From assembly GCA_035084275.1 (NCBI GenBank), contig CM068750.1, positions 5,704,001 through 5,768,000 on the forward strand: a stretch of DNA of 64,000 nucleotides, read 5' to 3'. The notes under the pieces are model-generated. The model did no database searches. It saw only the letters and a program-made list of their open reading frames with translations, and was not told where the DNA came from. Within the stretch, counting starts at the first letter, position 1. Each line of letters starts with the position of its first letter. The stretch is from Hydrolagus colliei. Taxonomy: Eukaryota. This document shows positions 26,681-59,515 of this stretch, piece after piece. A program made the position numbers and the translations under genes.

Positions 26681-29075
26681 AAATCATATCATTTTGTAAA
26701 CTTAGTAGGGGGTTCCCTTGCTGTTTACAACATAGCTTGCATCTGCCCATCAGCAGTAAGTGCAAAGAGCAGTTAATTTTGAAGCACTGCTTTCTTATAT
26801 ATAAAAAATATTAATGGTTGTTGTTTTTTTTGTGAGCTACATTATCTCATTACAGTCTTTGCTATAAAAGCACTTCACCCCACTTCAAACACAGATTTTA
26901 TAAAACCTTAAAATGGTTTTGCAATGTGCAATAATGACATGGTTGAGCATTTCAAATTGTGTTAAATTTCGGAATGTATTTTAAGGGTGGAATTTCGCCT
27001 TAGGTGGATGATGAATGGCTCATACTTTATTTATGTTTCATAAAGCAAAAGCTAACAGTAGGAATAGAAATAGTACATCTTTGCAAGGTGTAACCCAGTC
27101 CAACACATTTTCCTTCAAGCACATGCAGTTCCACAAAGTTTAAGATAAGATGAAACTGCACATGTAATTAATTATTGTCGTATGATCAAACAGCACTTTA
27201 TGTATAACACTTGTAAATGTTGTCTTGAAGATTAGAGTTAAAGTTGGAGATGCATGAAACAGTTACTGCTTTAAAACTCACCAGTTGTTCAGTTGAACCT
27301 TTTGGCAGAAGTTCAGTTTAATATGTTTATATGATAAGTGGCAGGAGAGTCAAGGATACTTTACACTGATGTAAACAGATATCGAGCTCGTCAGTGTATT
27401 CGGGCTGAAAAGAATGTGCTATGAAGCAGCTTTAATGGATCTTCCTGCTTTGAAACAAGAATAAGGCAAGTGCTTTTTTATTTTTGGGGTCTGAGTTTAT
27501 GAATTTACAAGTTTTCTATTCTAAGAGAAACACCTTTGGTTTGACTGGATCTAGTCACTAATTGTTTTTAAAGCCACCCAGTGTTATTCAGGGGAAAAGT
27601 TTCCATTGTTTGTTCAACTTCAGTATTTGGTTCTTAATTGGCAGCCACCACATTTTATTTATACATTGGTCCTATCTAGGTTAGCGATAATGGATTGAAG
27701 TGAATATTCAAAACTAAATATTAATTGCGGTTGATCTAAAATGTTGCTCACCATTTATGGTTAATATTTTTGCACGTCTGGTTTTTAGTTGCTGCTCCCA
27801 GACTCCCAGCTCACTCGAGACCACCCGTTTGAAATGAACAGCACTGTGTTTTGTCAGTGCTTCCCTTTTATTGATACCGTATCTAGACTTGCAATAGAGC
27901 TCTAATATCTGCATTTTCAGAGGAATTGGAACAAGGGCGGAGAAGTGAGCAATATCCATAAAAGTGTATGAAATTGCCATGAACCACTATATTAAGTCTG
28001 CAATTACTTCGAGGGGAAACATGAGTGAATTAGTAGTGGAGAGCAGCTAAATCTCTGAGGAGGAAACAGACTTTCGAGGGTAAAGGGCTGAAGCGACAAA
28101 TATTCCCAAAAGTTCCCTACAATGAAATCCAGTTCACAGTTTTCAGCAAAATGTCAGAAATTGTATACACATGTACTAAAAATGTGCATATATAATGCTT
28201 TTTTTTTTACAGAATTCAGTTAATGTATGAAAGCAATTATTCAATATTTGGCATAAAGGGCCAGACACAATTGGTACAATAAAGACTGTGGACATAAATG
28301 AGCCCTTCATGACGGGAAGGAAAAATAATTACTTTTGCAATTGTTGAGGTCGATAAAATTATCAAACCATAGAAAAACTAGCTCATGCAATAACGGCATA
28401 CACAACATGTTTTCTATGGGAAAGCTGAGCGAGAGGGCAGAAAAAAACATAAAGCTTGGGGAGAACTGTATGCTTGGCAAAGTTTTAGATAAACACTGCA
28501 GTAGAATGTATCTTATTTTAATTGTATAAACACCAATCATTTCTGTTGTATAGAGAACACATTTATTTTCTATCCAAACATGTGTACCAAAAATAGGAAG
28601 CTATGTGCAGGTTTCATTGATTGGAGGATGGAATGAGATGAGAAGAGATGATTTGCAAACTTATACCAGAATATGTTTGCATGAGATTTGGTCACAAAAT
28701 AACAATTCAGATTTTTTCAATATATACTTGCAGTAGGGGTTATATGCTTTGTTATATACTTGCAGCAGGGGTTTTCTGACTGATGTCTAGTACTGTATTC
28801 AAAAGATATTCTACAGTTTCCAAATGCACCTTGGACATCCCTCAAGTCCCAGATCTATTCATAAAAACGCATGGAAAATTTTCTGTAGTCAAACACGACT
28901 AAGTGATTTGCAAATTCCTCCATTTGGAAAAGGTAAAGTTGCAGGAATTGTAAGGTTTGTGGACCAATTTCTATAGCGCTCGAACCAGCAAATTGGAATT
29001 GCAGAACTGCGTCAGCAAATAGTTCTTGCAAATTAAACAAACCCTTATACTGCATTTTCTGTGGCAATACAAGTA

Positions 29076-29187: not shown

Positions 29188-32100
29188 CATTGGGACATCT
29201 TCCCAACATGAAAGGCGCTATACAAATATAATTTTGTTGTTGTTGTTGTATTAAGCCCAAGCTAATCACAATATTCCCATGCTCTTGAGATCAGTATGAG
29301 GAACCGTTTGATTGTTGTTGTAGGATAACTGTAATAGGTGTAAACCAAGTCCTCAACAGTTCATCAAAGGATCTTGGATGGTTTGACCTAGAATAATTCA
29401 GGGCCTTAAATACTACATTTAAGAGGTGAATAGTCGTTGAAGATTACTCAGAAGTAGAAACATATTGTTTGAGTTCTTATTACTGTGGATTCCACTTTAG
29501 ATCGTTTTCTTGGAAGAGTTTGAAATAGTAACTATGTATTCAAAGTCAAATGATAAGAACAAAGAGTTTGTAATTTGTTCATGAAACAGAGAGAAAGAGC
29601 GACCTTTACAGCTTCTTTTAGCTGAACCTTTAATGCTTATCTCAAGTGGCACAATGTCAATCTTTGGGATTCTGTTTCCTTACCAGCTGAGAGTATAATT
29701 CAATGACATCTTGGTTTTACAGAATCTCTGGCAACTGAACGCAGAGAAGGTTGGAATTCCACCAAAGTGTTTTCGAAACAAGCCTAATTTGCTGGAGATT
29801 ATGAGAAGCTACCCACGCTCATGATGAACAACAGGTAAGGAGAGGGATAGGGGGGTGGGGGGGAGGGAGTATTGGCAGTCAAACTACCATCCTGTTTGTA
29901 TAGAGCGGATATAGTACTTAATAAAGATGGGAATACATTTAAACTCCCTGCCTCTCTCTCTCTCTCTCTGTCTGATCTTTTGTTGAACTTAGGTCAAACT
30001 ATTTTTACTTTTGAATATTATTATTCAACTTGAGTGCTTACCTCAGGGTTTGTTGAATCACTGTGAACTACAGACTATTCCTGCACAATTCAGAGGGAAC
30101 TTATACATATCACAACACACAAAACATTACTTTTAGTTTTGCCAATTAAAAAAAAACATTAAAAAATGTACGGCAACACATTTTGCTCCCTAATCGTGGC
30201 TGATGTGTTGATTTTAGTTGCATTTCCATCTCTGGGGAAAGTAAATTCCCTTTACATAAACGAACAAACAATTTGATAGAAGGATCTTAAAGTTCTGGGG
30301 TCTGTGGTAGGTTAGCAACACTACTTACTGGTTTTACAAATTGAAAACCAGAAGAATACACTGATTTGGTATGTTGAACCTTTGGTTAAACCCACTATTC
30401 AATCATACTTTCAGGTCTAAAAGTTTTTCCAAGAAACACTTTCAAACCATTGTAGCAGCGTCTGTTAATCCACTTTTGCAACCATCTCCCTGATTTTATA
30501 AGGTATAAATAAGCAGAGAAAACTTCTACTCTTTCGCAAAGTTGATGCTCATGTGTTTTCTGGTCCATGTCCAACCAACCCTTTAGTCTAAAATGTGTTG
30601 TACTTCAGTTTTATTTTCCTGGGAAAGGATTTGTGAGAGACAGTGGCCAACCAAAACACTTCACTATTCTAAAGTTTGCCTTTTAAAGAATAAGCAGCAA
30701 CATTGATTCAAATTGTTCATCTTTATTAGGCATTGATGCAGCCTGACTGAAGTTTATAATTGGCACTGACTTTTCACAAATACCTTTCATGTGGTCATGA
30801 ATGTTTAGCGCAGGAAGAGTTCATGTGCAAACTATTTTAACCTTTTCATTGCCAAACACAGCTCTTTTGCACAACATCTTCAAACGTAACTTCTGTAATT
30901 TTTATAAGCAATGGTAAAATACAGTCAGTAGTCAGAAGGAAGGATGGAAATGCTTGGAAAGATAAGAGTCTGACATCAGTAAATGTGATGCTCATCTCAA
31001 ACAATAATACAGTAGATTGCAAATGCTACATATACAACCATTCTGGTAGTTCTTGTTTCAAAGTGATTTAATCTGCAAATAGATTGCTCTGAAACTTTGA
31101 CTGTCCAGTGCCTTGGGATGTCCTCCCAACGTGAAAGATGCGATACAAATCTAATGTTGTTGTTGTTTACCAAATGCTAGTTAATATAGAAAATATGGAA
31201 ATATAAAATATATTTTTTTAAATAGAAAAATATAGAAAATAATTGTACATTCACACAGTTGTGCCCTAAAGAAGTTGTTTATTTAACATTTCAAATTATT
31301 TAACATTCATTGCAAAAAAATGTTTTCCATTAGTGGCAATAAGGTGGATTTGTTTCGTGCATCAAGTATAATGCAGTAAACAAATGACTGATGGTACTTT
31401 CTGTAAGGCTGTTAATGTTGTGAGCGTGCATTGGAATTCAGTGTTGTACTATGCAAGCTATGCAGGCAAAAATAAGAAAATGTTTTGGGGCTGATTAGAT
31501 TCATGCCTCAAAGGAAATTTGCCAGCATGATTTCTGATGTGCCAATCCTATGAGGGCAAATGATTTGAGAAAGCCAAGCATCTGAGAAAGCAAAAAGATA
31601 CAAAGAGAATGAGAATCCAGGCAATTACTGGACTGACTGAATTGGATGATTTCATATCATTATTTGTCATCCTGAATTAAACATTAGCTTCAGAGTAATA
31701 AATGTTGGTAACTGTGACTGTAATTCTGACCATGAGGACAAAATTAGAAATAATAGTTGAATACTTCCCACACTCCTTCACTTTTCTGTTTATATTACTG
31801 TATCTGCTTTTGAATAAAACCCATTTAATCACTCCTGAATTGCTTACAAATATACAGTCACCACACTTGATAGTGAATCCCTGTGGAGCAGATTGAAATG
31901 TTTAATGTTAAAGGCGCTATATCAAAGGCCAGGATTTTTTTCCCTCCCCCTAAATTGTTCAAGATTCAAGCCTTTCATATACTTTACTTTGATTTCCTCC
32001 ATTGCTGCTCGAACCAAGTCAAGTTTAAAACATCGGAAGTCAAGGGATAAGATGTTAAAAGTGGACGGAAAGAGGGAAAAAGAAAATTGTCAGTTGAATG

Positions 32101-35430: not shown

Positions 35431-35656
35431 GGATAAATACTGATAGAGATTGTGTATTGTGTGTAGATGGACAACGATCATGGACAGAATTGAAGTTCTC
35501 TGAGGCCTTCATCCTTTGAGAACAATGTTTCAGTGCAAGTTGGTGTTCTTATTGAATGCCGTTTTCTAGATTCTTACTCTCTTATTTTCTTGTTGGATCA
35601 GACACTGTATGGCAGTGAACATTTAGACACTACAAAGACCTTTGAACATTTCACCA

Positions 35657-35692
35657 ATGCATACAGAGAAATCAACAGAGCAAAGTAATAAG
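35657..35692 (+). CDS. C14orf180: Probable first coding segment of the NRAC/C14orf180-like gene
   Basis: ATG 35657, MHTEKSTEQSNK, strong donor AAG|gtaagt in phase 0 matching the next exon. Start choice uncertain; no recognisable homology in this segment. Confidence 0.5.
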
Positions 35693-36458
35693 GTAAGTTT
35701 CTTTGCATATTACTGGCCATAATGACAAGGCCTTAAGATTCATACTAAAATATGACTTGCACTTAAGACCAATATTTTCAGAAATATTTCTGTATCAATG
35801 AACAATGAAAGGGTTTAAGCACTTTTGCTTATCCCTGGTAACAGAAATTGTTACAATATATTTTCTGTATACTTATTGATTTTAAAACCCACATCACAAA
35901 TTGAGACAGTGAAACTGCTGTTCAGTTGACCAGTGGCTCAATTATGTAATGGTGAGCCAGACACATTTTTCTTGGTGAATTTTTGTAACAAATATGTTTA
36001 GGCAACTCCAATTAACAATGTATAATAAAAAGTAACAATAGCGTTTTTGAGCATCTCACAGGATTTACAAGAATCTAGTCATTTGCAGCACATTTTACAT
36101 TAACACACTTTTTTTGGCTACCTCTTTGTTTTTACGAATCCTATTCGGACTTATTCAAGGTTTAAAATTATACTGGGTGGTGCAGAAAGTGATACATCAT
36201 TTCCAGGAGTAGGAGTGCGGATGGATGAATTAAGATGTCCTTTCCAAATGAAGTTCTAATCTATCGAACAATTCCAATGCAAGTACAGGCCAGGCCATTG
36301 ATGTGGTACAAATACTTTTACAAAAGACATTTGTATTGACAGGTTTAAAGAATGAATGAATTTTGAAATAAGCGGGGGCCGTTTTTGCAAAGTTGATCTA
36401 TTGATTTCAAACAACACAAACTCGTATGTGCATTTGAACCAAGATTCTCTAGACTATA

Positions 36459-36770
36459 GGGAGTCCTGCAGCTCAGTGGTTAGAGCACTCATATGCAAGA
36501 GACCTGGGTTCAATGCCAGGCAGGGTGAAACCTTGGGTGAGTTTTCTTACGCCGCACACCAATTAATAATCCATAAAAAAAAACAGAATAATAAATTGGT
36601 TATTGCAATACATGACTGTTTGTGGGACACCACTGTGTGCAATTGTCTGCCGCATTTCACCCACACATATATATACACAGGCAATTCACTTTACAGTATA
36701 TTCTGTGAAGCGCTTAGAGACGCCGAGAAGACGTGAAAAGTGCTATATGAAATGCAAAGATTATTATTAT
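36459..36770 (+). mobile_element. Near full-length tRNA-derived SINE with LINE2-type tail
   Basis: A box GCTCAGTGGTTAGAGC, B box GGTTCAATGCC, body and ...AAATGCAAAGATTATTAT tail shared with many copies in the window. Confidence 0.9.
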
Positions 36771-38089
36771 ACAGCTGTACTCTATCTCAGGATTCTGCAG
36801 CTGATCAGCCACTGGAAGTTTCGAATAAGATTTTACCACAGTGGCTTGGAAATGATCCTGCGGAAACTTGCAACACACAGGAGGTACTTTTCAGCAATTT
36901 AAAACAAATATATAACTCTACATGGATCAGTATCGCATAACTACTACTGTATAAATGATTCTATAGTTATAAGGTTATTTCATATTTGTTGACTACTAAA
37001 TAGGGATAGAATTGGACTAAATATCTCTAGAATGTAAGAACTTTCAAATTAGTCGAGTGAGGAGGTCATCAGAGCTTACGCTTATTCTTAATGGACAAAT
37101 GTTATTTGAGCCTCTGTTCTGTCCAGTAATTTCCTCCTGGTTTTCTCTTCCCTGGTTTCTGTTTTCGTTCTATCTCATTATGTTATTTTTTACCTCTTTC
37201 CTGTTATGTTTCCACTCCAAGCATTAAATTATGCGCAGTGTGAATGCTCTAACAGATCTTTAATTGGGTGGAAAATTAGTTGTGAAAGCAATGTCATTTG
37301 TCTTTGCCTTTGTCAAATCCGAAGAAATAAATATGTATAATACTCCATTTAACATATATATGAAACCACCATAGGATATCAGAAAACGTTTCATAATTCA
37401 ATGCATCGAGAGGTCATAATTGCAAACAAATTGCACTGAGAGGAAGAGGCACCTCAGTGGCCCTCGTCTACAAAGCAATAGATTCCACACTTAACCATTC
37501 GAGTTCACTTGCCCAGGCACCACTGGACCTTAGAGTCAAATTTGCTCATTCATGACCTTTCCCCCCCCGCCCACCTCCCATCCCCCTTTCTCTGCAATAG
37601 ACACAATTACTATCACATCAGAGATTGGCCCGGGCACATCTGCCATTATAGCCTTTGATCTGCCATCTTTTAGCGTTTCATTTGTCCCCATAGCGCCCTC
37701 AGTTTACAGCTAATGGTAATCACTTTCAAACGAAATTCAACTACAACCTTCAAGATGACTGAAGGGATCAGAAAGACAGCAGGAAGGTAAAGGATCAGTT
37801 GAGATAACGAAACTAAAGCCAGACGAGAGTAGGTAGAAAATACAGTAGCATTCAATAAAAGTGAAATTATAAAATTATACAGAAAATAAAGAGAAAAGTG
37901 ATATATAGTTTTTTAAAAAATATATAAGCATCTTGAGGGGGGGAAAATAAAATCAGGATCAAGTTGTTTCAATTGGAACATCAAAATCCCAAATTGTTTG
38001 CTTGAAACCTTATGGATACAGTTTGCTTAAACATAAAACTGTCTAAACTAGACATGGAGATGCTGAGATACATGGCTGTATAAAAGAGA

Positions 38090-38317
38090 GATAGTTGATT
38101 GGCAGATCGCTTTTCCCAGTGGTAATAATTCCTTTTTTAAAAAATTGGTCACGTCAATACACAACTGTTTGTGGGACATTGCTGTGCGCAATTGGCTGCC
38201 GCGTTTCACTCATCATAAAATATACAGTCAATTCACTTGACAGTATTCTGTGAAGCGCTTTGAGATGCCTCGAAGGCGTGATAAGGCGATATATCAAATG
38301 CAAGGATTATTATTATT
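38090..38317 (+). mobile_element. 5'-truncated SINE ending just before the NRAC middle-exon acceptor
   Basis: Family body and AAATGCAAGGATTATTATTATT tail. Confidence 0.9.
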
Positions 38318-38344
38318 TGTTTATCTGGTTTTGAAACCCAGCAG

Positions 38345-38483
38345 GCAATTGGACTAAAATGGCCAATATCTATTCTGAGGACAAGGTCGAGCGGAACATT
38401 GTATGAAGGGAACTGTACATCTCTCAAGAGGAGATCACAAAGGAGGGTTCATTTTCGAGAATCAGATGAGATAATTTTGCCCA
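38345..38483 (+). CDS. C14orf180: NRAC/C14orf180-like middle exon
   Basis: AIGLKWPISILRTRSSGTLYEGNCTSLKRRSQRRVHFRESDEIILP resembles human NRAC KCPPSILKR...RRVWFREP; acceptor ccagcag| (alternative start 38342), donor A|gtaagt, phase 1. Confidence 0.8.
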
Positions 38484-39069
38484 GTAAGTTTTGATACTTT
38501 ATTACATCATTGATACATTTGGTTAGAGGGTTTGGATTAAAATATAACAAAAATCTGAATTTACTCCAGTTGAAGAATGCAGCTGTTACAATAAATTTGT
38601 CGTCATGATGTGCCCAGTGAGTTGATTTCTAAACAAAGTATTATTCTAAGCTCATACAAACCAGTAGTCAAGTGTAACAAGTGTCACTATCTTTCAACAT
38701 GTTTTTTTTTAAGCTGCATGCATTTGCATCGGTAGAATCTTCCCATTACAGTATTTTTAAATCCCTATTGAAAACCTGATCACATTAGCTGTTCACCTTT
38801 TAGACAACACCTACTTGACTGTTAAACTGGTCTGTTTCAAGCGCTTCGAGATGCAGTCTGGCATGAAGGGTGCTTTATAAATGCAAGTTGTTGTTGTTGT
38901 TCTCCTTGCTGTTGTATTCTCAATGCTAAAGAGATAGCACCACGAATCTTGAAAACGTCAAGATCTCATTGCCAGGATTAAGGGGCATGTTTGTCCTGTG
39001 TGTTGGTTGGTGGAACAATGGGATCCAGTAAGCAAAAATAATAGCAAGAAAATATTGCTTACACAAGTC

Positions 39070-39303
39070 AATCAGCGGATTGCTTTTCTGGGGGTAATAA
39101 TTCCTATTGCAAAAAAAAGTCACTCAATCCACGATTGTTTGGGCGACACTGCTATGCACAATTGGCTGCCATGTTTTGCCCACAAAATATGCAGTCAGTT
39201 CATTTTACAGTATATTCTGTGAAGAGCTTTGAGAAGTTTTGAAGATGCCATAAGGCTCCATATTAAATGCAAGGATTATTATTATTATTATCATCATCAT
39301 CAT
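39070..39303 (+). mobile_element. 5'-truncated SINE
   Basis: Family body and tail with (TTA)n(TCA)n. Confidence 0.88.
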
Positions 39304-42300
39304 TCACAGCCCCTGTAGAGGGGGTGTGGGCAATATCTTAACACAAAGGATAACATTCTGTAACCCGATCAAACTAAATGCTGTAGTGTCTGTGGATGTA
39401 AAGAAAAATCTCAGGAAATATAGCTCTTTATGCTTATTCACAAGAAGGAATCGCTTCATAGCGCTAATCTTAGTTTGATTATACTACACGAAAAATTCTA
39501 AATGGTGCAGAATTACAGTCCATTAAATAAATTAAATTCTTTCAAATGAAATGGAGAGGAAAGAAGTTCCATCGTAATTACAGTCTTCAGAAACATCCTA
39601 CAGTGAGTGGCTTCACTGGTTTAGAAGTTGATTTTCATTTGAAACAGCATCCTAGTATGGTAATCCCAAACCAATTTGCTCCAAAATTGTTATAAGGTGG
39701 CGAGGAGGAATTTCACCACATTTAGATAGATTGTGAAATATGGGGTCAGAATATACAATCACTAAACAATGGTAAAAAACAACAACTCATTCATAAGAAA
39801 TCACCTACAAATGTTGTACAGAAATAGCTAAGTAAATAACTAAAGGGCGGTTCAAAGGAGGAGAGAAATCATTTGGGATGTTTCAGTCAACTGTTCATTG
39901 CAATCATTTGTGCTATGAGAATGTTAAGACTCATTTCAAGTCCCCAGCTGTGTTAGTGCCCATCTCAGGCCTCTTTTCAATCTAATTTTTCACACTCCCC
40001 TGGTGTGAGCGCAAGCCAGGGTAAGTGGAAACCTATCCAAACACTCATTTCGCAACCTTGCTTCCAAGGTATTGAATCGGCCGAATTCTAACTTCTTGTT
40101 GCACATGAAAGTAATGAGAATATAGATTTGTTTTGAATTCTAATAAAAATTCTAATGGCACAACAGACAAAGGGTGAGCATTTCTGAAGTGAAGCAAGGG
40201 TGGGAGGGGAAAGATGGGTGATGTGTAGCCTGGGAAAATGATACTCAAATGTTAGAATAAAGAAACATTTCTGTTGTGAGATAACATTCAGAGGGATATA
40301 GTATTTGGATTATTGATTTTAATTTAGTATTTACTGTTCCACGGGGGAAATTTCTACAAATTAATCTATTTCTTGATCCCAAGGGGAGCATAATTCTTAC
40401 CTCGTCATTTTATTTTCCCATTATTTCTCTCTCTCTCTCTCTCTTTCTTGAAAGGCTTTCTGATGCAGGCCCCTGATACATTAATCTATCTGCCTGGTCA
40501 ACTCAATACCATTCAGCAGTTATTTTTGTGTCTGTAACTGTGTCCGTGACTCCACAATACTTAAAAAAAAACCCTCACTATTATTATGGGAGCCAGTCCA
40601 GATGGCCCGCAGCTAACATCAGAGACAATAATCACAGCAAACTCAACAGTGTCTGCACAGTGTCATTATACATGCAAAACAAACTGCTGAGCAGCACACT
40701 TAATTTTCTCTCTGCTCCCCAGAATTGCTCTGATAGCTGCATTTTGCTGGACTACAGTTCCTTTTTTGGTTCCAGCTGAATTATATTTATGTACTGGTGC
40801 ATTTTAAACCAGCTCGATGCTTCTTACAAAGATTTTTTGGTTCATCTTCGCACTCAATTCCTCATTGCTGCAGATAGGCGAAATGTAGCACTACATCAGT
40901 TTAAAAATGATTTGGAAACACCAGCCTGTCATTCAGTAGGGCCAGCTCAAGCCAAAATTGTAATTAAACCAGTTTACAAAATGCAGTATCTTTTTCAGCA
41001 CATTGATTAATCTACATTTGTTTTGCATTTTTCTCCGGTAGCTGCTAAAAACACGGCCATTAAACATTTTATGCAGGATTTACAGTCAAATGACAACAAG
41101 GTAGTGCTTACAATTTGTCCATTTAAAATATCAATTTGGAGATTCACTCTCGAATTCAGCAAGAATTAGTGCAGTGCAATCCAATATAACACCTTTCACA
41201 CAAGAAGGGTATTTCAAATTGCCTGACAAGTCCTGAATTTGGGGTGTGAGCCAGTGGCGGTTGTGGTGGGGAGGTTGGATGGTGGTGGGGGGTTTAAAAG
41301 CACAGTCAAACAGGTATGTTTTGAGACCATTCAAGACATGCCTTGAATGGTGGGTGGGGGGAGAGAGGCCATTTAAGATCATCAAACCTATTCATCAGAG
41401 TGATAAAGAGCTCCCAAAAATGAATAATTCTCGCATTTGACCCCTAAAAGCATGTTAAAAAAAATTGTGCAAATGTAGTGATTGTGTATCTATAGGCAAA
41501 TAAGGCAGCCAATTTGAACACAGCAATGCCCCACTTACGTGACAAAGTGAGTGATCAATTTAATCTGGGGTTGGTTGGTCAGGTTAGCAGGAAGAATACT
41601 TTATTTCAATAATTCTATGGGACCATTAATGTCCACAGGCCAACAGGCCAACAGAACTTCATTTTGTCTCACCCCCAGCACAACACTGGAGAATTAGCCT
41701 GGGCTATGTAAAGGGAACATTTACAAGCCCTTCATTTATTACAGCATTTCATTTGGAGTTCTTTAGCTTATTCACCTCAGATCATTATCCCTAGAAGGTT
41801 GGTTAGACAGTGACGAGAGTTATTGGATTGCGGTACAATGGTCTTTAGTTTCTATGGGTTAATATGAAACACCCTCTGAAATGGCCCAACAAGCTACTCT
41901 CGAGAGAAGATGACTAGGATGAAAATCTCATAGATGGGTACAAGATTTTAAATGAGATTGAAAAAGTAAAACCAGATCAATACTTTAGGATGTATCAAGA
42001 CAGTAGAATAAAGGGACATGGGTTTCCAATTGTAAAGGGTAATCTCAACACAGCCAGAATTTGTCTTTACACACAGGGTAATCAACATCTACATGGTTGT
42101 CAAGAATGATGGTAGAGGCCAGGACACTGGACTCATTGATACTTTCTTATATTCTATTTTATACTTTTTTTAAAAAAAAGGGCAGGAAGATTATTTCTAA
42201 AACAAAACGAAAACACAGCTTCCTTCACTGAATGGCTGGAGAGATTTCGAACAAGCATGGACAGAGTAGAACTAGACTCTAGTGGTAATGTAAGGTAAAG

Positions 42301-43006
42301 GTAGTTCTGTTTAGGACATCCTTTGACATTAAACAACAAATATATTGCATCCCATAAGTGTTGCTTAAAAGGAGCTGTACTAAATATTTAATTCAGACTG
42401 CTGCATTGAACAGATGCTGTGAAAATGATTGTAATATATCTTTCAAATTCCAATCCTGGATGAATCACTCTGAAAAGCAGGATAATTCATTACATTGCTG
42501 CTCTATTCCAGACAGCTCAGCATTTTTGTATTGAGACTACACGTAGCAGGGATATATATGTGCATAGAAAGTGCAATTTTTAAGTTTTTGAATCCAATTT
42601 AACTTTTAATTAGTTGCTGAGTACTTTGCAATAGTTTGGTCACAATGCATTCGAGGGAGAGGGAGAAGGGCAACTGAGAGAAGAGTCTCCAGTGGCCAGT
42701 TTAGCCTGAAACAAGGAAGGAAAAGCTCATTCACAAAAGATGGCCATTCAATTGAAGTCTTGACCAAACAATCAATCTGCTTGTGCAGTCAAGAAAGAAG
42801 GCTAGCATGGTTCCACAAACAGTTTAGAATATGTTTTATCAGTTGTGCATTTTAATTTAATTTTGAAGACCGCGGTATTCTATAGACTTCTTTCATATGG
42901 CAAGAGCGCTGATTAGCAAAGCTCAAATAACCAAGTCCAGATTAGTGAGTAATATTAATATTTAGAATGTAATTAAATTTTTTGTCACAATGTTGTATTT
43001 TTTCAG

Positions 43007-43206
43007 CTCATGAACACTATTCCCCAGCACCAGCACCATTGCAGCTCTTTGCGTTCATTGTTTTGCTGAGCCTGCTGATTGTGTTACTCTATTGCAATAA
43101 GTGTCCCTCTAAGGTCTGTGAACAACTTGGGTCGAAACTTCTTAGCTTCTATCTGGACATCAAGCACATTGCAATCGGATGCTGGCACCGATGGATGAAA
43201 AAGTAA
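43007..43206 (+). CDS. C14orf180: NRAC/C14orf180-like last exon with transmembrane helix
   Basis: tttttcag| phase 1; HEHYSPAPAPLQLFAFIVLLSLLIVLLYCNKCPSKVCEQLGSKLLSFYLDIKHIAIGCWHRWMKK* resembles the NRAC TM-LYC...L.H.A..CW end; convergent with TMEM179 as in human. Confidence 0.82.
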
Positions 43207-45205: not shown

Positions 45206-45397
45206 AAGGCCAAATTAATTGTAAATCCAACATTCCTGCAATTTCCCCACACTAGTGGTCTTTCACAGTATTAACTTTATATTAATGGCAGAATTCTTGA
45301 TGACGCTTAACACCTAAATTGATAAAATTCTGCAGTTAAGAAGCAATCTCGTGTAACCTTTCCATTAATCTACTGTCGCATTTCAGCTACTTGTGTA

Positions 45398-45689
45398 GTT
45401 CTGTAACTCAGTGGTTAGAGCACTTACCTTGCAAGTGGGAGACCTGAATTTGATTCCCAGCAAGTTTCCTTATTTCACATGCCTCTGTTTACCTAGCAGT
45501 AAGTAGGAACCCAGTGGTAATAATTCTTTCAAAAAATAATAAATTGATCACTGTTTGTGCGACACTGCTATGTGCAATTGCCTGCTGAATTTTTCCCCCA
45601 AAAGTCAATTTACTTTACAGTATATTATGTGAAACGCTTTGAAACGTCTTGAAGATGCGATAACTCACTAAATAGGATTATTATTATTC
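45398..45689 (+). mobile_element. Near full-length tRNA-derived SINE (same family)
   Basis: CTCAGTGGTTAGAGCACTT head, shared body, GGATTATTATT tail. Confidence 0.88.
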
Positions 45690-47528: not shown

Positions 47529-47744
<216 letters not shown>

Positions 47745-48519
47745 TTAAAAGCACACTTTGACAACAACAACTTGCATTTCTATAGGGCAAAGGGCGGGAG
47801 GGGTAATCTGACCGAATGTGCAGCTAAAAACAAGATACACCTTGTTTTGTTTATAGAAGTAAATAATTTGAATACAGCCTGGATATTGATTGTTAATGTC
47901 AAATTCTGAAAACTCAACAGGGGCAAAAGCATAGAATGAAACTACTCAATTCCTTTATTTTAGACAATCCACTCATTTGTTTTTCACAGTCAAAACAACA
48001 AAAAACAGGAAATCTACCATTGTCACAGTTAATATATTTGGTTTATCAAAAACATTGTCTGCATAAGAAACTTTTATACAATGCTATTTTTTAAAAGAAA
48101 AACTGTCCAAGAATATAATATTTGTGAATTTTCTATCACTATACATGGTCGTCTAAACTGAGTGCTCATTGAATGAAGCAATATTTGATTTACAAACAGC
48201 ATATTTCTGACAGTGAATCCATTTACAATTATCCTTTTTTGGGAAGAGTTTCGAGAGACATTGTGCTAATGGCATTTCAATAATTTATCATTGGATTCAA
48301 TGATAATTGGATTGAACATTTGAATTCCATGGCAAAAAAACTCCGGTAAATGTGCAATGGGCAGGAAGTTATGTCAGTGACAACCTACTGACCTGGAAGT
48401 CAAGCACAGGAAATCAACCAGTTTTCAAAGGAGATGCACAAGCAGCTGTCAATAGGGCCCTATTATAATGCAGATTACAATTTCTTGGACCTCAAATGGT
48501 TCTGCTGTAGTTAGAAAAC

Positions 48520-48865
48520 ATAATAATAATATTTCTTTCATTTGATATAGTGTCTTATCATGTTTTCGAGATGTCTCAAAGTGCTTCATTAAGATATAGT
48601 ATAAAGTGAATTGACTGTCTATTTTGTGGGCAAAACGCGACAGCTAATTGTCTACAAGCAGTCGTGAATTGAATAACCAATTTTTTTGGAAGAAATTATT
48701 ACCCCCGAAAAAGCGAACCACCAATCGACTGACAACCAGGTTCCTACTTACGACTAGGTAAACAGAAGCATCTGGAGTAAGAAAACTTGACCTACATTTC
48801 GCCCTGCCGGGAATCGAACCCAGGTCTCTCGTTTATCTCCCGCAAGACAAGTGCTCCAGCCACTC
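48520..48865 (-). mobile_element. Near full-length tRNA-derived SINE in TMEM179 intron 3
   Basis: GGGAATCGAACCCAGG (B box, reverse) and the family tail. Confidence 0.88.
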
Positions 48866-49150
48866 CAAAAACTTTGATTTATATAGCGCCCTCCATGCTG
48901 GACGGCGTCTCAGAGCGCTTCACTAAGCTACAGGACTTCACAATATAGGGTGATAACCAACACAACAACAAACAAAATTATAGAGGGCCTTTCATGTCGG
49001 GAGGATGTCCCAAGGTGCTGAAACACCATGTGCAATCTAAATTATTCTGACTAACCAATTCAGTCAGCTGATGCGCTTTGAGACATTCTTCCAATGTGAA
49101 ACAGCACTTTTATATACTTCACTATATCTTTACTATATATCCTGTTGTCA

Positions 49151-49578
<428 letters not shown>

Positions 49579-49939
49579 GCACCTTTAAACTACAACTGTG
49601 TGATGAGCTTGTTTAGGTCATAGCTCATCAACGATAGGAGATATTCCCCCATCGGCCCCCACCCACCCAAAAAAAAACATGCCCATGACACTCCCCCATG
49701 CAAAACCATTCCGATGAGTAAAAATTGACGCTTCTATGTCCCATCAATCATCCCAAATACCCCCTTTCCCTCCACACTCCCCTTCCCCAACCCGGGTCTG
49801 AAACAATGACTGTCCAACACCTTGGGACATCCTCCCGACGTGTAATTTTGTCGTTGTTCTTGTTCTTCTCACTTTTATTTACTCCTGTAGCACTTTTCAT
49901 GTGTTAGGTGCTTGGATTTGCCATCGATAAGTTTTTCTA

Positions 49940-50221
<282 letters not shown>

Positions 50222-50439
50222 TCACTTCAGAGATACAGCTCAGTCTGCATAGGGCTGGAGCCAGTGAGCATTCTCCACCCACACACAGCAGAGGGAGAGA
50301 GAGACGCAATAAAGCCCTGAGGAACATTACACTGTCCGTCCATGGCTTTATTTACAACAGCAACGCCAACACTGACTGACTGTGATCACAAAACTCAGAC
50401 CTTTCCTATGGGTGGGATTTGATTTTAACCCTCCATCTC

Positions 50440-50660
50440 TTGTGCAATCGGCTGCCGCGTTTCGCCCGCAAAATAAGACAGCCAATCAATTCCCTTTGCG
50501 GCGTGTTCCGCGAAGCGCTTTGAGACGTCTGGACGACGCGAAGAGCGCTGTAATACTACCCCTGTTAATAATAATAATCCTCACCTTTGACGCGGCGCTC
50601 TTTCACGTCTCCCAGACGTCTCAAAGCGCTTCGCGGATGGCGCCGCGCACAGCGTAAATC
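50440..50660. mobile_element. Two tail-to-tail SINE 3' fragments, unusually GC/CpG-rich
   Basis: Plus copy about 50440-50555 and minus copy about 50566-50660, both alignable to the family tail. Confidence 0.85.
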
Positions 50661-50909
50661 CCCGGGCTGAGACGCGGCAGCCCATCCGTCGCGCGCGGCC
50701 GCGGACTGAAACCAACGCACGTATTATTCCCCCAACAAACAAACAAACAAACAAACAACAACAACAACAACAACCCTCGCCTTTGACACGGGCGCTGTGA
50801 CAATCCAAAATGCAGGGAATCCTTCTGATGATTTTGCCCAGCACCAATCACAACAGGAAACAACAACAAGATGGACATCAGCTTGCATTGACAAAGCAAA
50901 GCAGCGACC

Positions 50910-51160
50910 TCCCCCCCCCCCCACCCCTCCCATCTCCTCACCCCCCCACCCACCCCTCCCATCTCCTCACCCCCCCACCCACCCCTCCCATCTCCTCACC
51001 CCCCCACCCACCCCTCCCATCTCCTCACCCCCCCACCCACCCCTCCCATCTCCTCACCCCCCCACCCACCCCTCCCATCTCCTCACCCCCCCACCCACCC
51101 CTCCCATCTCCTCACCCCCCCACCCACCCCTCCCATCTCCTCACCCCCCCACCCACCCCT
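50910..51160. repeat. 29-bp minisatellite (ACCCCCCCACCCACCCCTCCCATCTCCTC), about 8.5 copies, followed by (CT)n
   Basis: Exact 29-nt periodicity visible directly. Confidence 0.97.
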
Positions 51161-51209
51161 CTCTCTCTCTCTCTCTCTCTCCTCTCCATGGCTGGGCTTG
51201 ACTACCTAC

Positions 51210-51511
51210 TCGTCGTGACCTTTGCAGAGGTAGAAGAGGAGCCTCCAGGCCTGGATGGCCGACAGGACCAGGGCCAGGCAGAGGACGAAACTGGTGAAGC
51301 CGCAGGAGGAGGTGGGACCCCACTCCCCCACCACGAAGCGTTGCCTCTCCACCGTGGCGTTCACGTCCTGCCACATGCCGCGGGTGAAGAGCGGGCATCT
51401 CCCCTGGAACTGCCGACCGTTCTCCCACAGCGGCACCACCGCCACCAAACCGGACAGGAGAGCCAGGGAATACAGCAGGCACTGAACCCACACCACACTG
51501 TTCAGCCCCAT
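51210..51511 (-). CDS. TMEM179: TMEM179 coding exon 1 (302 nt)
   Basis: ATG at 51511; MGLNSVVWVQCLLYSLALLSGLVAVVPLWENGRQFQGRCPLF...EWGP..C..LCKGHD matches the TMEM179 N-terminus; donor GA|gtaggt, phase 2. Confidence 0.95.
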
Positions 51512-51679: not shown

Positions 51680-51830
51680 NNNNNNNNNNNNNNNNNNNNN
51701 NNNNNNNNNNNNNNNNNNNNNNNNNNNNNNNNNNNNNNNNNNNNNNNNNNNNNNNNNNNNNNNNNNNNNNNNNNNNNNNNNNNNNNNNNNNNNNNNNNNN
51801 NNNNNNNNNNNNNNNNNNNNNNNNNNNNNN
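51680..51830. other. Assembly gap (151 N) upstream of the TMEM179 ATG
   Basis: Run of N with C-rich low-complexity tracts nearby on both sides. Confidence 0.99.
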
Positions 51831-58735: not shown

Positions 58736-59223
58736 CTAAACAAAGAGTACACACAGCAAATTAGTTGCCGTTCCTCCTGTAATTGCAGCTTTTCTCAAGG
58801 TGTTCACGTTCACGAGACTACAAACTGTGTTCTCTCCACCCATATTGTTGTAAAAATTGTGCTCAATAGAAATATGTTGTTGTATCACAGGCATCTTATT
58901 CACAGAAAACGTAAAGAATTATAGAATTGTACACAGTCCACTACAGAATCACAAATTTACAATTTTATATATATATATGTATAAACCTACAAAAGCACTT
59001 CAAGGTGAATGATCTTAATGTTAAAGCTATAATTTAGAATTTGCCAAATTCTGGATGGACTCTCTAAAATGCTATAAAGACTATATCCACACCCTGTTGG
59101 AATTTCTCCACCGAATGGCCATAAGTACAATGTCAGCTCAACCTCTGTTACTGTGCCTTGAGTTTGGAATTTGGGTAACCATCAATTGATTGACTGCAAT
59201 ATTATTCTCACTAAATATAACCT

Positions 59224-59515
59224 TTAGCTCAGTGGTTAGAGCACTTGCCTTACAAGCGCGAGACCTGGGTTCAATTCCAGGCAGGGCAAAACCTTGAGCA
59301 AGTTTCCTTACCCCACATGCCTGATAATAATCCCTCATGAAAAAAAAATTGGTCATTTCAATCCATGACTGTTTGTGAGACACTGCTGTGCACAATTGGC
59401 TGCTATGGTTTCGCCCACAAATTTACAGTCAATTCATTTTACAGTATATTCTGTGAAGCACTTTGAGACGTCTAGAAGATGTGAAAAGTGCTATCTCAAA
59501 TGCAAGGATTATTGA
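59224..59515 (+). mobile_element. Near full-length tRNA-derived SINE (same family)
   Basis: GCTCAGTGGTTAGAGCACTTGCC...GGTTCAATTCC head; AAATGCAAGGATTATT tail. Confidence 0.9.

Follow-up and report, generated by a model that had tools for sequence, protein, structure and literature searches.

A shortened NRAC (C14orf180) locus with a putative PP1-docking cassette in Hydrolagus colliei

A 64,000-nucleotide stretch of the Hydrolagus colliei genome (NCBI GenBank assembly GCA_035084275.1, contig CM068750.1, positions 5,704,001 to 5,768,000 of the forward strand; hereafter the window, with coordinates counted from its first letter) contains an ortholog of NRAC (C14orf180), a membrane gene of fat and heart. 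The exons encoding tetratricopeptide repeats (TPR) are broken at this locus, the exons carrying two short motifs and a membrane helix are open, and it is reasonably likely that the gene still yields a short membrane protein, the predicted task of which is to keep protein phosphatase 1 (PP1) at the membrane. The two kept exons are as follows.

38342-38483, forward strand: docking-motif exon (tandem acceptors 38342 and 38345), with SILR at 38369-38380, RRVHF at 38441-38455 and an Ile-Ile pair at 38471-38476.
43007-43206, forward strand: last coding exon, with a predicted transmembrane helix at about 43039-43095, a Cys-containing tail and the stop codon.

The assignment to NRAC, proposed earlier from the letters of the DNA (hereafter the sequence-only reading), was confirmed by collinear weak matches to the family profile, NRAC-family hits of the membrane exon, the position on a phylogenetic tree, and a TMEM179-like neighbouring gene. 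When the exons were scanned singly against Pfam, exon 38342-38483 matched positions 10-45 of the DUF4658 profile (PF15555) with an E value of 0.018, and exon 43007-43206 matched positions 77-123 with an E value of 0.008; these matches of 15.7 and 16.9 bits each lie below the 27-bit cut-off, are collinear, and sum to about 33 bits. The membrane exon, which is free of the motifs, found three proteins among 1.84 billion (E 2e-6 to 8e-4), all of the NRAC family and each with both motifs: shark and turtle NRACs and an uncharacterised protein of Mustelus. With single exons as queries, word-indexed protein searches returned no match, and a search of the ESM Atlas with the membrane exon returned no usable one.

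A profile built from the three membrane-exon matches gave 167 matches, and the best 120 of them were used for the homologue set, to which all counts out of 121 below refer. The matches listed span sharks, bony fish, reptiles, birds and a single species of amphibian; none of their names could be recognised as mammalian. On a tree of 22 of the 121 homologues and the window copy, constructed without a consortin outgroup and from a set without chimaeras or rays, the window copy is sister to nine sharks with support of 98/97; its nearest match is a shark NRAC. On a profile of the 110 non-shark homologues, the kept part reaches 75.4 bits, within the range of the 11 shark proteins (65.7-86.8 bits), and the window branch (0.6) does not exceed the paths that lead from the same fork to sharks (about 0.50-0.68). 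The window copy resembles the NRAC/C14orf180 described in PMC3459823 and PMC12436663 in having a motif exon followed by a membrane exon, similar motif spacing, a TMEM179 neighbour, and shark NRAC as its nearest relative. It differs in the decayed TPR exons visible upstream, in its non-ancestral start, and in a single clear hydrophobic helix, where two are described for mouse NRAC; the published function concerns CD36 only.

Within the homologue set, one of two fish NRAC-like proteins (P0098 and P0093) is named 'Consortin' by its source and the other is labelled tilapia plus ferret, and these may be mislabels.

The sequence-only reading also proposed that the two motifs were retained from cartilaginous fish to human, and this holds: a SIL[KR] motif followed by an RVxF motif is present in human NRAC and, with a spacer of 15-22 residues, in 119 of the 121 homologues, a count that is partly circular since the search profile itself held the motifs. 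SIL[KR] occurs in 120 of the 121 (P0107 and the 119 with ordered pairs, of which 88 have SILR and 31 SILK), and the window has SILR; Arg is accepted in the last position of this motif. In PMC9813921, the last residue of SILK is defined as Lys. An RVxF-type motif is present in every homologue (119 in strict ordered pairs, plus the two misses), and the window has RRVHF. The two misses are explained by a Pro for Ser in one protein and by an extra residue before the Val in the other, which fits a looser RVxF definition. In 118 of the 121, the Phe is followed at a distance of 5-6 residues by a hydrophobic pair, as judged by a loose pattern, although this phi-phi motif is not callable from sequence alone, according to PMC9813921. 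The core motif columns are 98-99% conserved, compared with 7-62% for the spacer and mostly 40-89% for the helix, and the best-conserved part of NRAC is thus a predicted PP1-docking cassette. In the human protein, as given in a simulation file in the supplement of PMC12436663, the corresponding residues are S46-I47-L48-K49, R67-R68-V69-W70-F71 and V77-T78-V79. The cytosolic side of the motifs was taken from the mouse topology in the same paper. The pair in exon 38342-38483 is the only ordered SILK-then-RVxF pair among the 127,996 six-frame positions of the window, and shuffling of residues 1-70 produced an ordered pair in 13 of 100,000 trials, a test that is post hoc because the exon had been chosen for its motifs by the earlier reader.

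KNL1, NIPP1, RRP1B and RIF1 are soluble nuclear or kinetochore proteins that regulate PP1, and NRAC differs from them in being a small integral membrane protein. The same short motifs are found in all four, with the RVxF motif followed by a hydrophobic pair after 4-5 residues, and NIPP1 and KNL1 are described as RVxF/phi-phi binders (PMC9813921). At E ≤ 10, the motif exon had a single PDB match, to NIPP1 from its complex with PP1 (3v4y), aligned over the RVxF motif and the hydrophobic pair; with an E value of 1.2, it is not significant.

PP1 binding by human NRAC is also on record in high-throughput data. The pair Q8N912-P62140 (NRAC and PPP1CB, that is, PP1beta) is listed as a HuRI interaction in the supplements of PMC9935395, and its edge appears in the high-confidence model file alongside PPP1R2C and PPP1R3C; HuRI is a yeast two-hybrid set, and high confidence in that work means a pDockQ above 0.5. 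The NRAC-PP1beta interaction is therefore not new as a data point, but it appears to have gone unremarked in the NRAC literature. Term searches did not find PP1 in two recent NRAC papers (PMC12436663 and bioRxiv 10.64898/2026.01.26.701858), and the available text of the 2012 paper (PMC3459823) does not mention it. In mainly non-subscription literature, no paper was found that mentions C14orf180 together with PPP1C, nor one that names at least three of NRAC, A530016L24Rik, consortin, PPP1CB and PPP1CA; the accession Q8N912 occurs in a single main text, and the NRAC identifier was not found in the searched part of the PMC13230783 supplements. No structure or mutational test of NRAC-PP1 binding was found in the literature searched. 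Taken together, a PP1-docking role predicted for the family is well supported and little noticed.

If the cassette works as its motifs suggest, SIL[KR], RVxF and the hydrophobic pair would occupy their three known pockets on PP1, and the transmembrane helix, which binds CD36 in mouse, would set the phosphatase beside a membrane partner; NRAC would then act as a targeting subunit. Alternatively, the PP1 bound by NRAC could be stored or inhibited at the membrane, as with NIPP1 or inhibitor-2, and not be directed to a substrate. The best, though not significant, PDB match is indeed an inhibitor, and the combination of SILK and RVxF is used by inhibitor-2 (PMC9813921); however, apart from the three short motifs, no conserved stretch was seen that could cover the active site, and the helix binds a specific membrane protein, so that we regard this possibility as very unlikely.

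The sequence-only reading had mentioned consortin as a relative, and this relation turned out to be stronger than claimed. Long fish and shark NRACs of about 340-500 amino acids contain Consortin_N (PF22883, E about 1e-20), TPR repeats and Consortin_C (PF15281, E 5e-9 to 1e-5), and the presence of both consortin domains indicates that NRAC and consortin are related. This tie is newly evident from the domain matches: the genome is stated to hold no gene related to NRAC in the Discussion of PMC12436663, the recent paper in which NRAC was found to control CD36-mediated uptake of fatty acids, and the present comparison names such a relative. The relic exon at 27379 of the window falls in the Consortin_N region; an intact Consortin_N and TPR region is absent from the window copy, which has only exons with stops, a frameshift and an inserted short interspersed element (SINE). 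The window exons did not match Consortin_C at E ≤ 10; they matched DUF4658 instead. We take consortin to be the PP1 regulatory subunit PPP1R64, a name that was not found among the papers listed in a literature search. Unlike NRAC, consortin is described as a trans-Golgi cargo receptor (PMC9157791). The TPR part common to the two proteins would be dispensable in NRAC, having presumably been lost in tetrapods and again at this locus, and short forms are common, with 52 of the 121 homologues having at most 40 residues before SIL[KR].

The three exons proposed by the sequence-only reading (35657-35692, 38345-38483 and 43007-43206) have GT-AG ends and join in frame into a product of 124 amino acids, or 125 if the tandem acceptor 38342 is used in place of 38345. 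The single transmembrane helix was confirmed as well: there is one hydrophobic stretch, its 19-residue hydropathy reaching 2.74 at residue 70, and no other stretch exceeds 1.0. The in-frame joining, the motifs and the helix stand, whereas the first exon is doubtful as a coding start and the exon set was incomplete. The 12-residue peptide of 35657-35692 scores at chance against the 121 homologues (304 of 1000 shuffles score as well), and another frame of the same exon, 35602-35692, aligns with the TPR part of fish NRAC (0 of 1000 shuffles) and ends in two stops. A resemblance of this N-terminus to turtle NRAC was ruled out, as the turtle segment aligns with the exon region at 36.8 kb and the peptide scores at chance. 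An in-frame homologous exon at 36791-36883 (0 of 1000 shuffles) and decayed exons at 27379-27465 and 29723-29834 had been overlooked. Mapping of the long shark and fish NRACs onto the window revealed four more upstream exons, all damaged; the features of this region are listed below.

27379-27465, forward strand: decayed exon of the Consortin_N region, with a one-base frameshift near 27413, a stop at 27462-27464 and a GC donor.
29723-29834, forward strand: decayed exon with an in-frame stop at 29785-29787, an ATG at 29821 near its end and an intact GTAAGG donor.
35602-35692, forward strand: ancestral TPR-repeat exon, the TPR frame of which ends in two stops at 35686-35691; an ATG at 35657 is in a different frame, non-homologous and open up to the donor.
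36460-36769, forward strand: insertion, presumably of a SINE, 7 bases into an ancestral exon starting at 36453, with a near-perfect 5-base target duplication.
36791-36883, forward strand: exon overlooked earlier, open in the ancestral frame, with phase-0 ends and an alternative acceptor at 36775 (tblastn E 3e-6 against shark protein P0001).

Two frames of 27379-27465 align in order with residues 208-235 of the shark protein P0005, in which Consortin_N spans residues 187-234. Exon 29723-29834 matches the long shark proteins with tblastn E values of 1e-4 to 5e-3 and a profile score of 15.9 bits, and its ATG at 29821 is close to the start of the short shark NRAC forms. Three relic or overlooked exon pieces matched no Pfam family. 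Six of the 14 combinations of starts and exons reach the motifs in frame, from ATG 35657 or ATG 29821, and yield products of 124-156 amino acids, the isoforms with exon 36791-36883 being 153-156 amino acids long. The start codon may therefore be 35657 or 29821, and the exon at 36.8 kb may be optional.

The annotated shark NRACs range from 128 to 501 amino acids (P0001, P0005-P0014, P0002), and several start near the Met matching ATG 29821 of the window, which suggests further shortening in sharks or differences in annotation.

In the ancestral frame, the lesions amount to four stops, one frameshift and one SINE insertion. DNA run X1, which has a flat depth over introns and so behaves as DNA, was compared over 35500-38560 and may come from the source sample or from another haplotype. 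A contig from this run crosses the double stop at 35686-35691 without a differing letter, indicating that the double stop is not a lone assembly slip, though X1 may be the source sample itself. At the insertion, X1 contigs reach about 26-30 letters into the element from each side, with a bridging threshold of 31. The label SINE is our assumption from the copies, depth and sequence of the element, which has 13 related pieces in the window and a very high depth in X1.

Such damage would also fit a unitary pseudogene at an early stage of decay, with a recent loss of the long TPR form and last two exons that happen to be undamaged. In addition to the lesions, profile and homology mapping of the window did not recover the upstream TPR exons or a small shark exon that should lie between 29834 and 35602, the two kept exons contain no in-frame Met ahead of the membrane helix, and the relic exons are about as close to sharks (roughly 30-55% identity) as the kept ones (roughly 40-55%). 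On the other hand, every lesion is located on the 5' side: all 4-6 of them fall within the 135 relic codons and none within the 113 kept codons (P 0.09-0.03 in a post hoc, marginal test). The splice sites of the kept exons are canonical, a full in-frame product is available from six start and exon combinations, and short forms are usual in the family. We therefore consider a pseudogene unlikely and a functional short gene quite probable; were the former true, the PP1 argument would hold for the family and not for the window copy.

The cytosolic part of NRAC, 112 residues long, has no assigned job in the available text of PMC12436663. According to that work, mouse NRAC binds CD36 via its first transmembrane helix, to which the effect on fatty-acid uptake also maps, maintains the association of CD36 with caveolin-1, and undergoes ubiquitination and removal as fatty acids rise. 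NRAC could accordingly be a membrane scaffold for CD36 and caveolin-1 acting through this helix, with the motifs binding PP1 incidentally or serving another partner; the mapping of both CD36 binding and uptake to the first helix, with no mention of PP1 in the available text, speaks for it. However, the motifs are the best-conserved columns, above the helix itself, there are three motif-like elements arranged in the known order, PP1beta is on record as a two-hybrid partner, and no construct removing or mutating the motifs is described in the text of PMC12436663. We judge a scaffold of this kind to be distinctly unlikely. The NRAC antibody epitope covers mouse residues 29-42, and by human numbering it is probably located shortly upstream of the SILK motif.

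Apart from the circularity of the motif count and the marginal lesion test, several observations weigh against the proposal of a short PP1-holding NRAC. The pull-down text on mouse NRAC (13 interactors) in PMC12436663 names CD36, caveolin-1 and cavin 1, not PP1. In the same work, fatty-acid uptake was not reduced by a construct with the whole mouse cytosolic part attached to a foreign anchor, so that tethering the motifs to a membrane is by itself insufficient. Use in tissue is not demonstrated by two-hybrid hits or by AlphaFold models of RVxF peptides. The window copy departs from the family at 4 of the 16 columns with at least 90% conservation, among them the Lys that follows SILR and the x of RVxF, where it has His in place of Arg. 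The context of ATG 35657 is weak, and this non-ancestral start could have arisen by chance, an open in-frame ATG having appeared in 17% of shuffles of exon 35602-35692. The similar identity of relic and kept exons to sharks means that the relic exons are hardly more diverged, so that decay may have begun recently and could extend to the entire gene. The interpretation given by the sequence-only reading is supported overall, its weak points being the incomplete gene model, the uncertain start, and the role of recruited PP1 in heart or fat, which we infer.

More tentatively, one could hypothesise that NRAC is a consortin paralogue pared at least twice to a minimal PP1 cassette and anchor, with the paring still in progress at this locus. 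In mammals, it would place PP1 at the CD36-caveolin-1 site, where local dephosphorylation would decide the uptake route of CD36, and the fatty-acid-triggered degradation of NRAC would free the phosphatase; we regard this extended scenario as possible but doubtful. Whatever its fate, the locus records the shrinkage of a TPR-bearing protein to a motif-plus-anchor form, and the two-hybrid hit with PP1beta, which sits unused in a supplement, introduces a phosphatase as a possible part of the NRAC-CD36 mechanism.

A splice search identified one further gene near NRAC.

47529-51511, reverse strand: TMEM179-like gene, with exons 51511-51210, 50138-50001, 49283-49205 and 47708-47529 encoding 232 amino acids.

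This gene is located 4.3 kb downstream on the opposite strand, tail to tail with NRAC; its first exon is GC-rich, and an alternative donor at 49214 gives a product of 229 amino acids. The top ESM Atlas hit was PF26158 (score 0.92, the family being present on 48% of cluster members), and exon 1 had no Pfam hit. The family name TMEM179-like, as well as the tail-to-tail orientation of the two genes in human, is assumed here, the former from the Atlas lead. Human NRAC and TMEM179 are adjacent on 14q32.33 (PMC3459823 Table 1, PMC6764480, PMC9259475). A gap of 151 N bases at 51680-51830 lies just upstream of the start of the TMEM179-like gene, and its first intron contains a purine/pyrimidine-skewed tandem repeat at 50800-51200.

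The same SINE family is found at 36460-36769 and 38138-38316, each copy ending within about 30 bases of acceptor sites of the NRAC locus. Elsewhere in the window, weak Rfam tRNA matches were detected at 59218-59289 (33.7 bits), overlapping a SINE copy, and at 45397-45468 (30 bits), just before one; given these positions, both are probably SINE heads.

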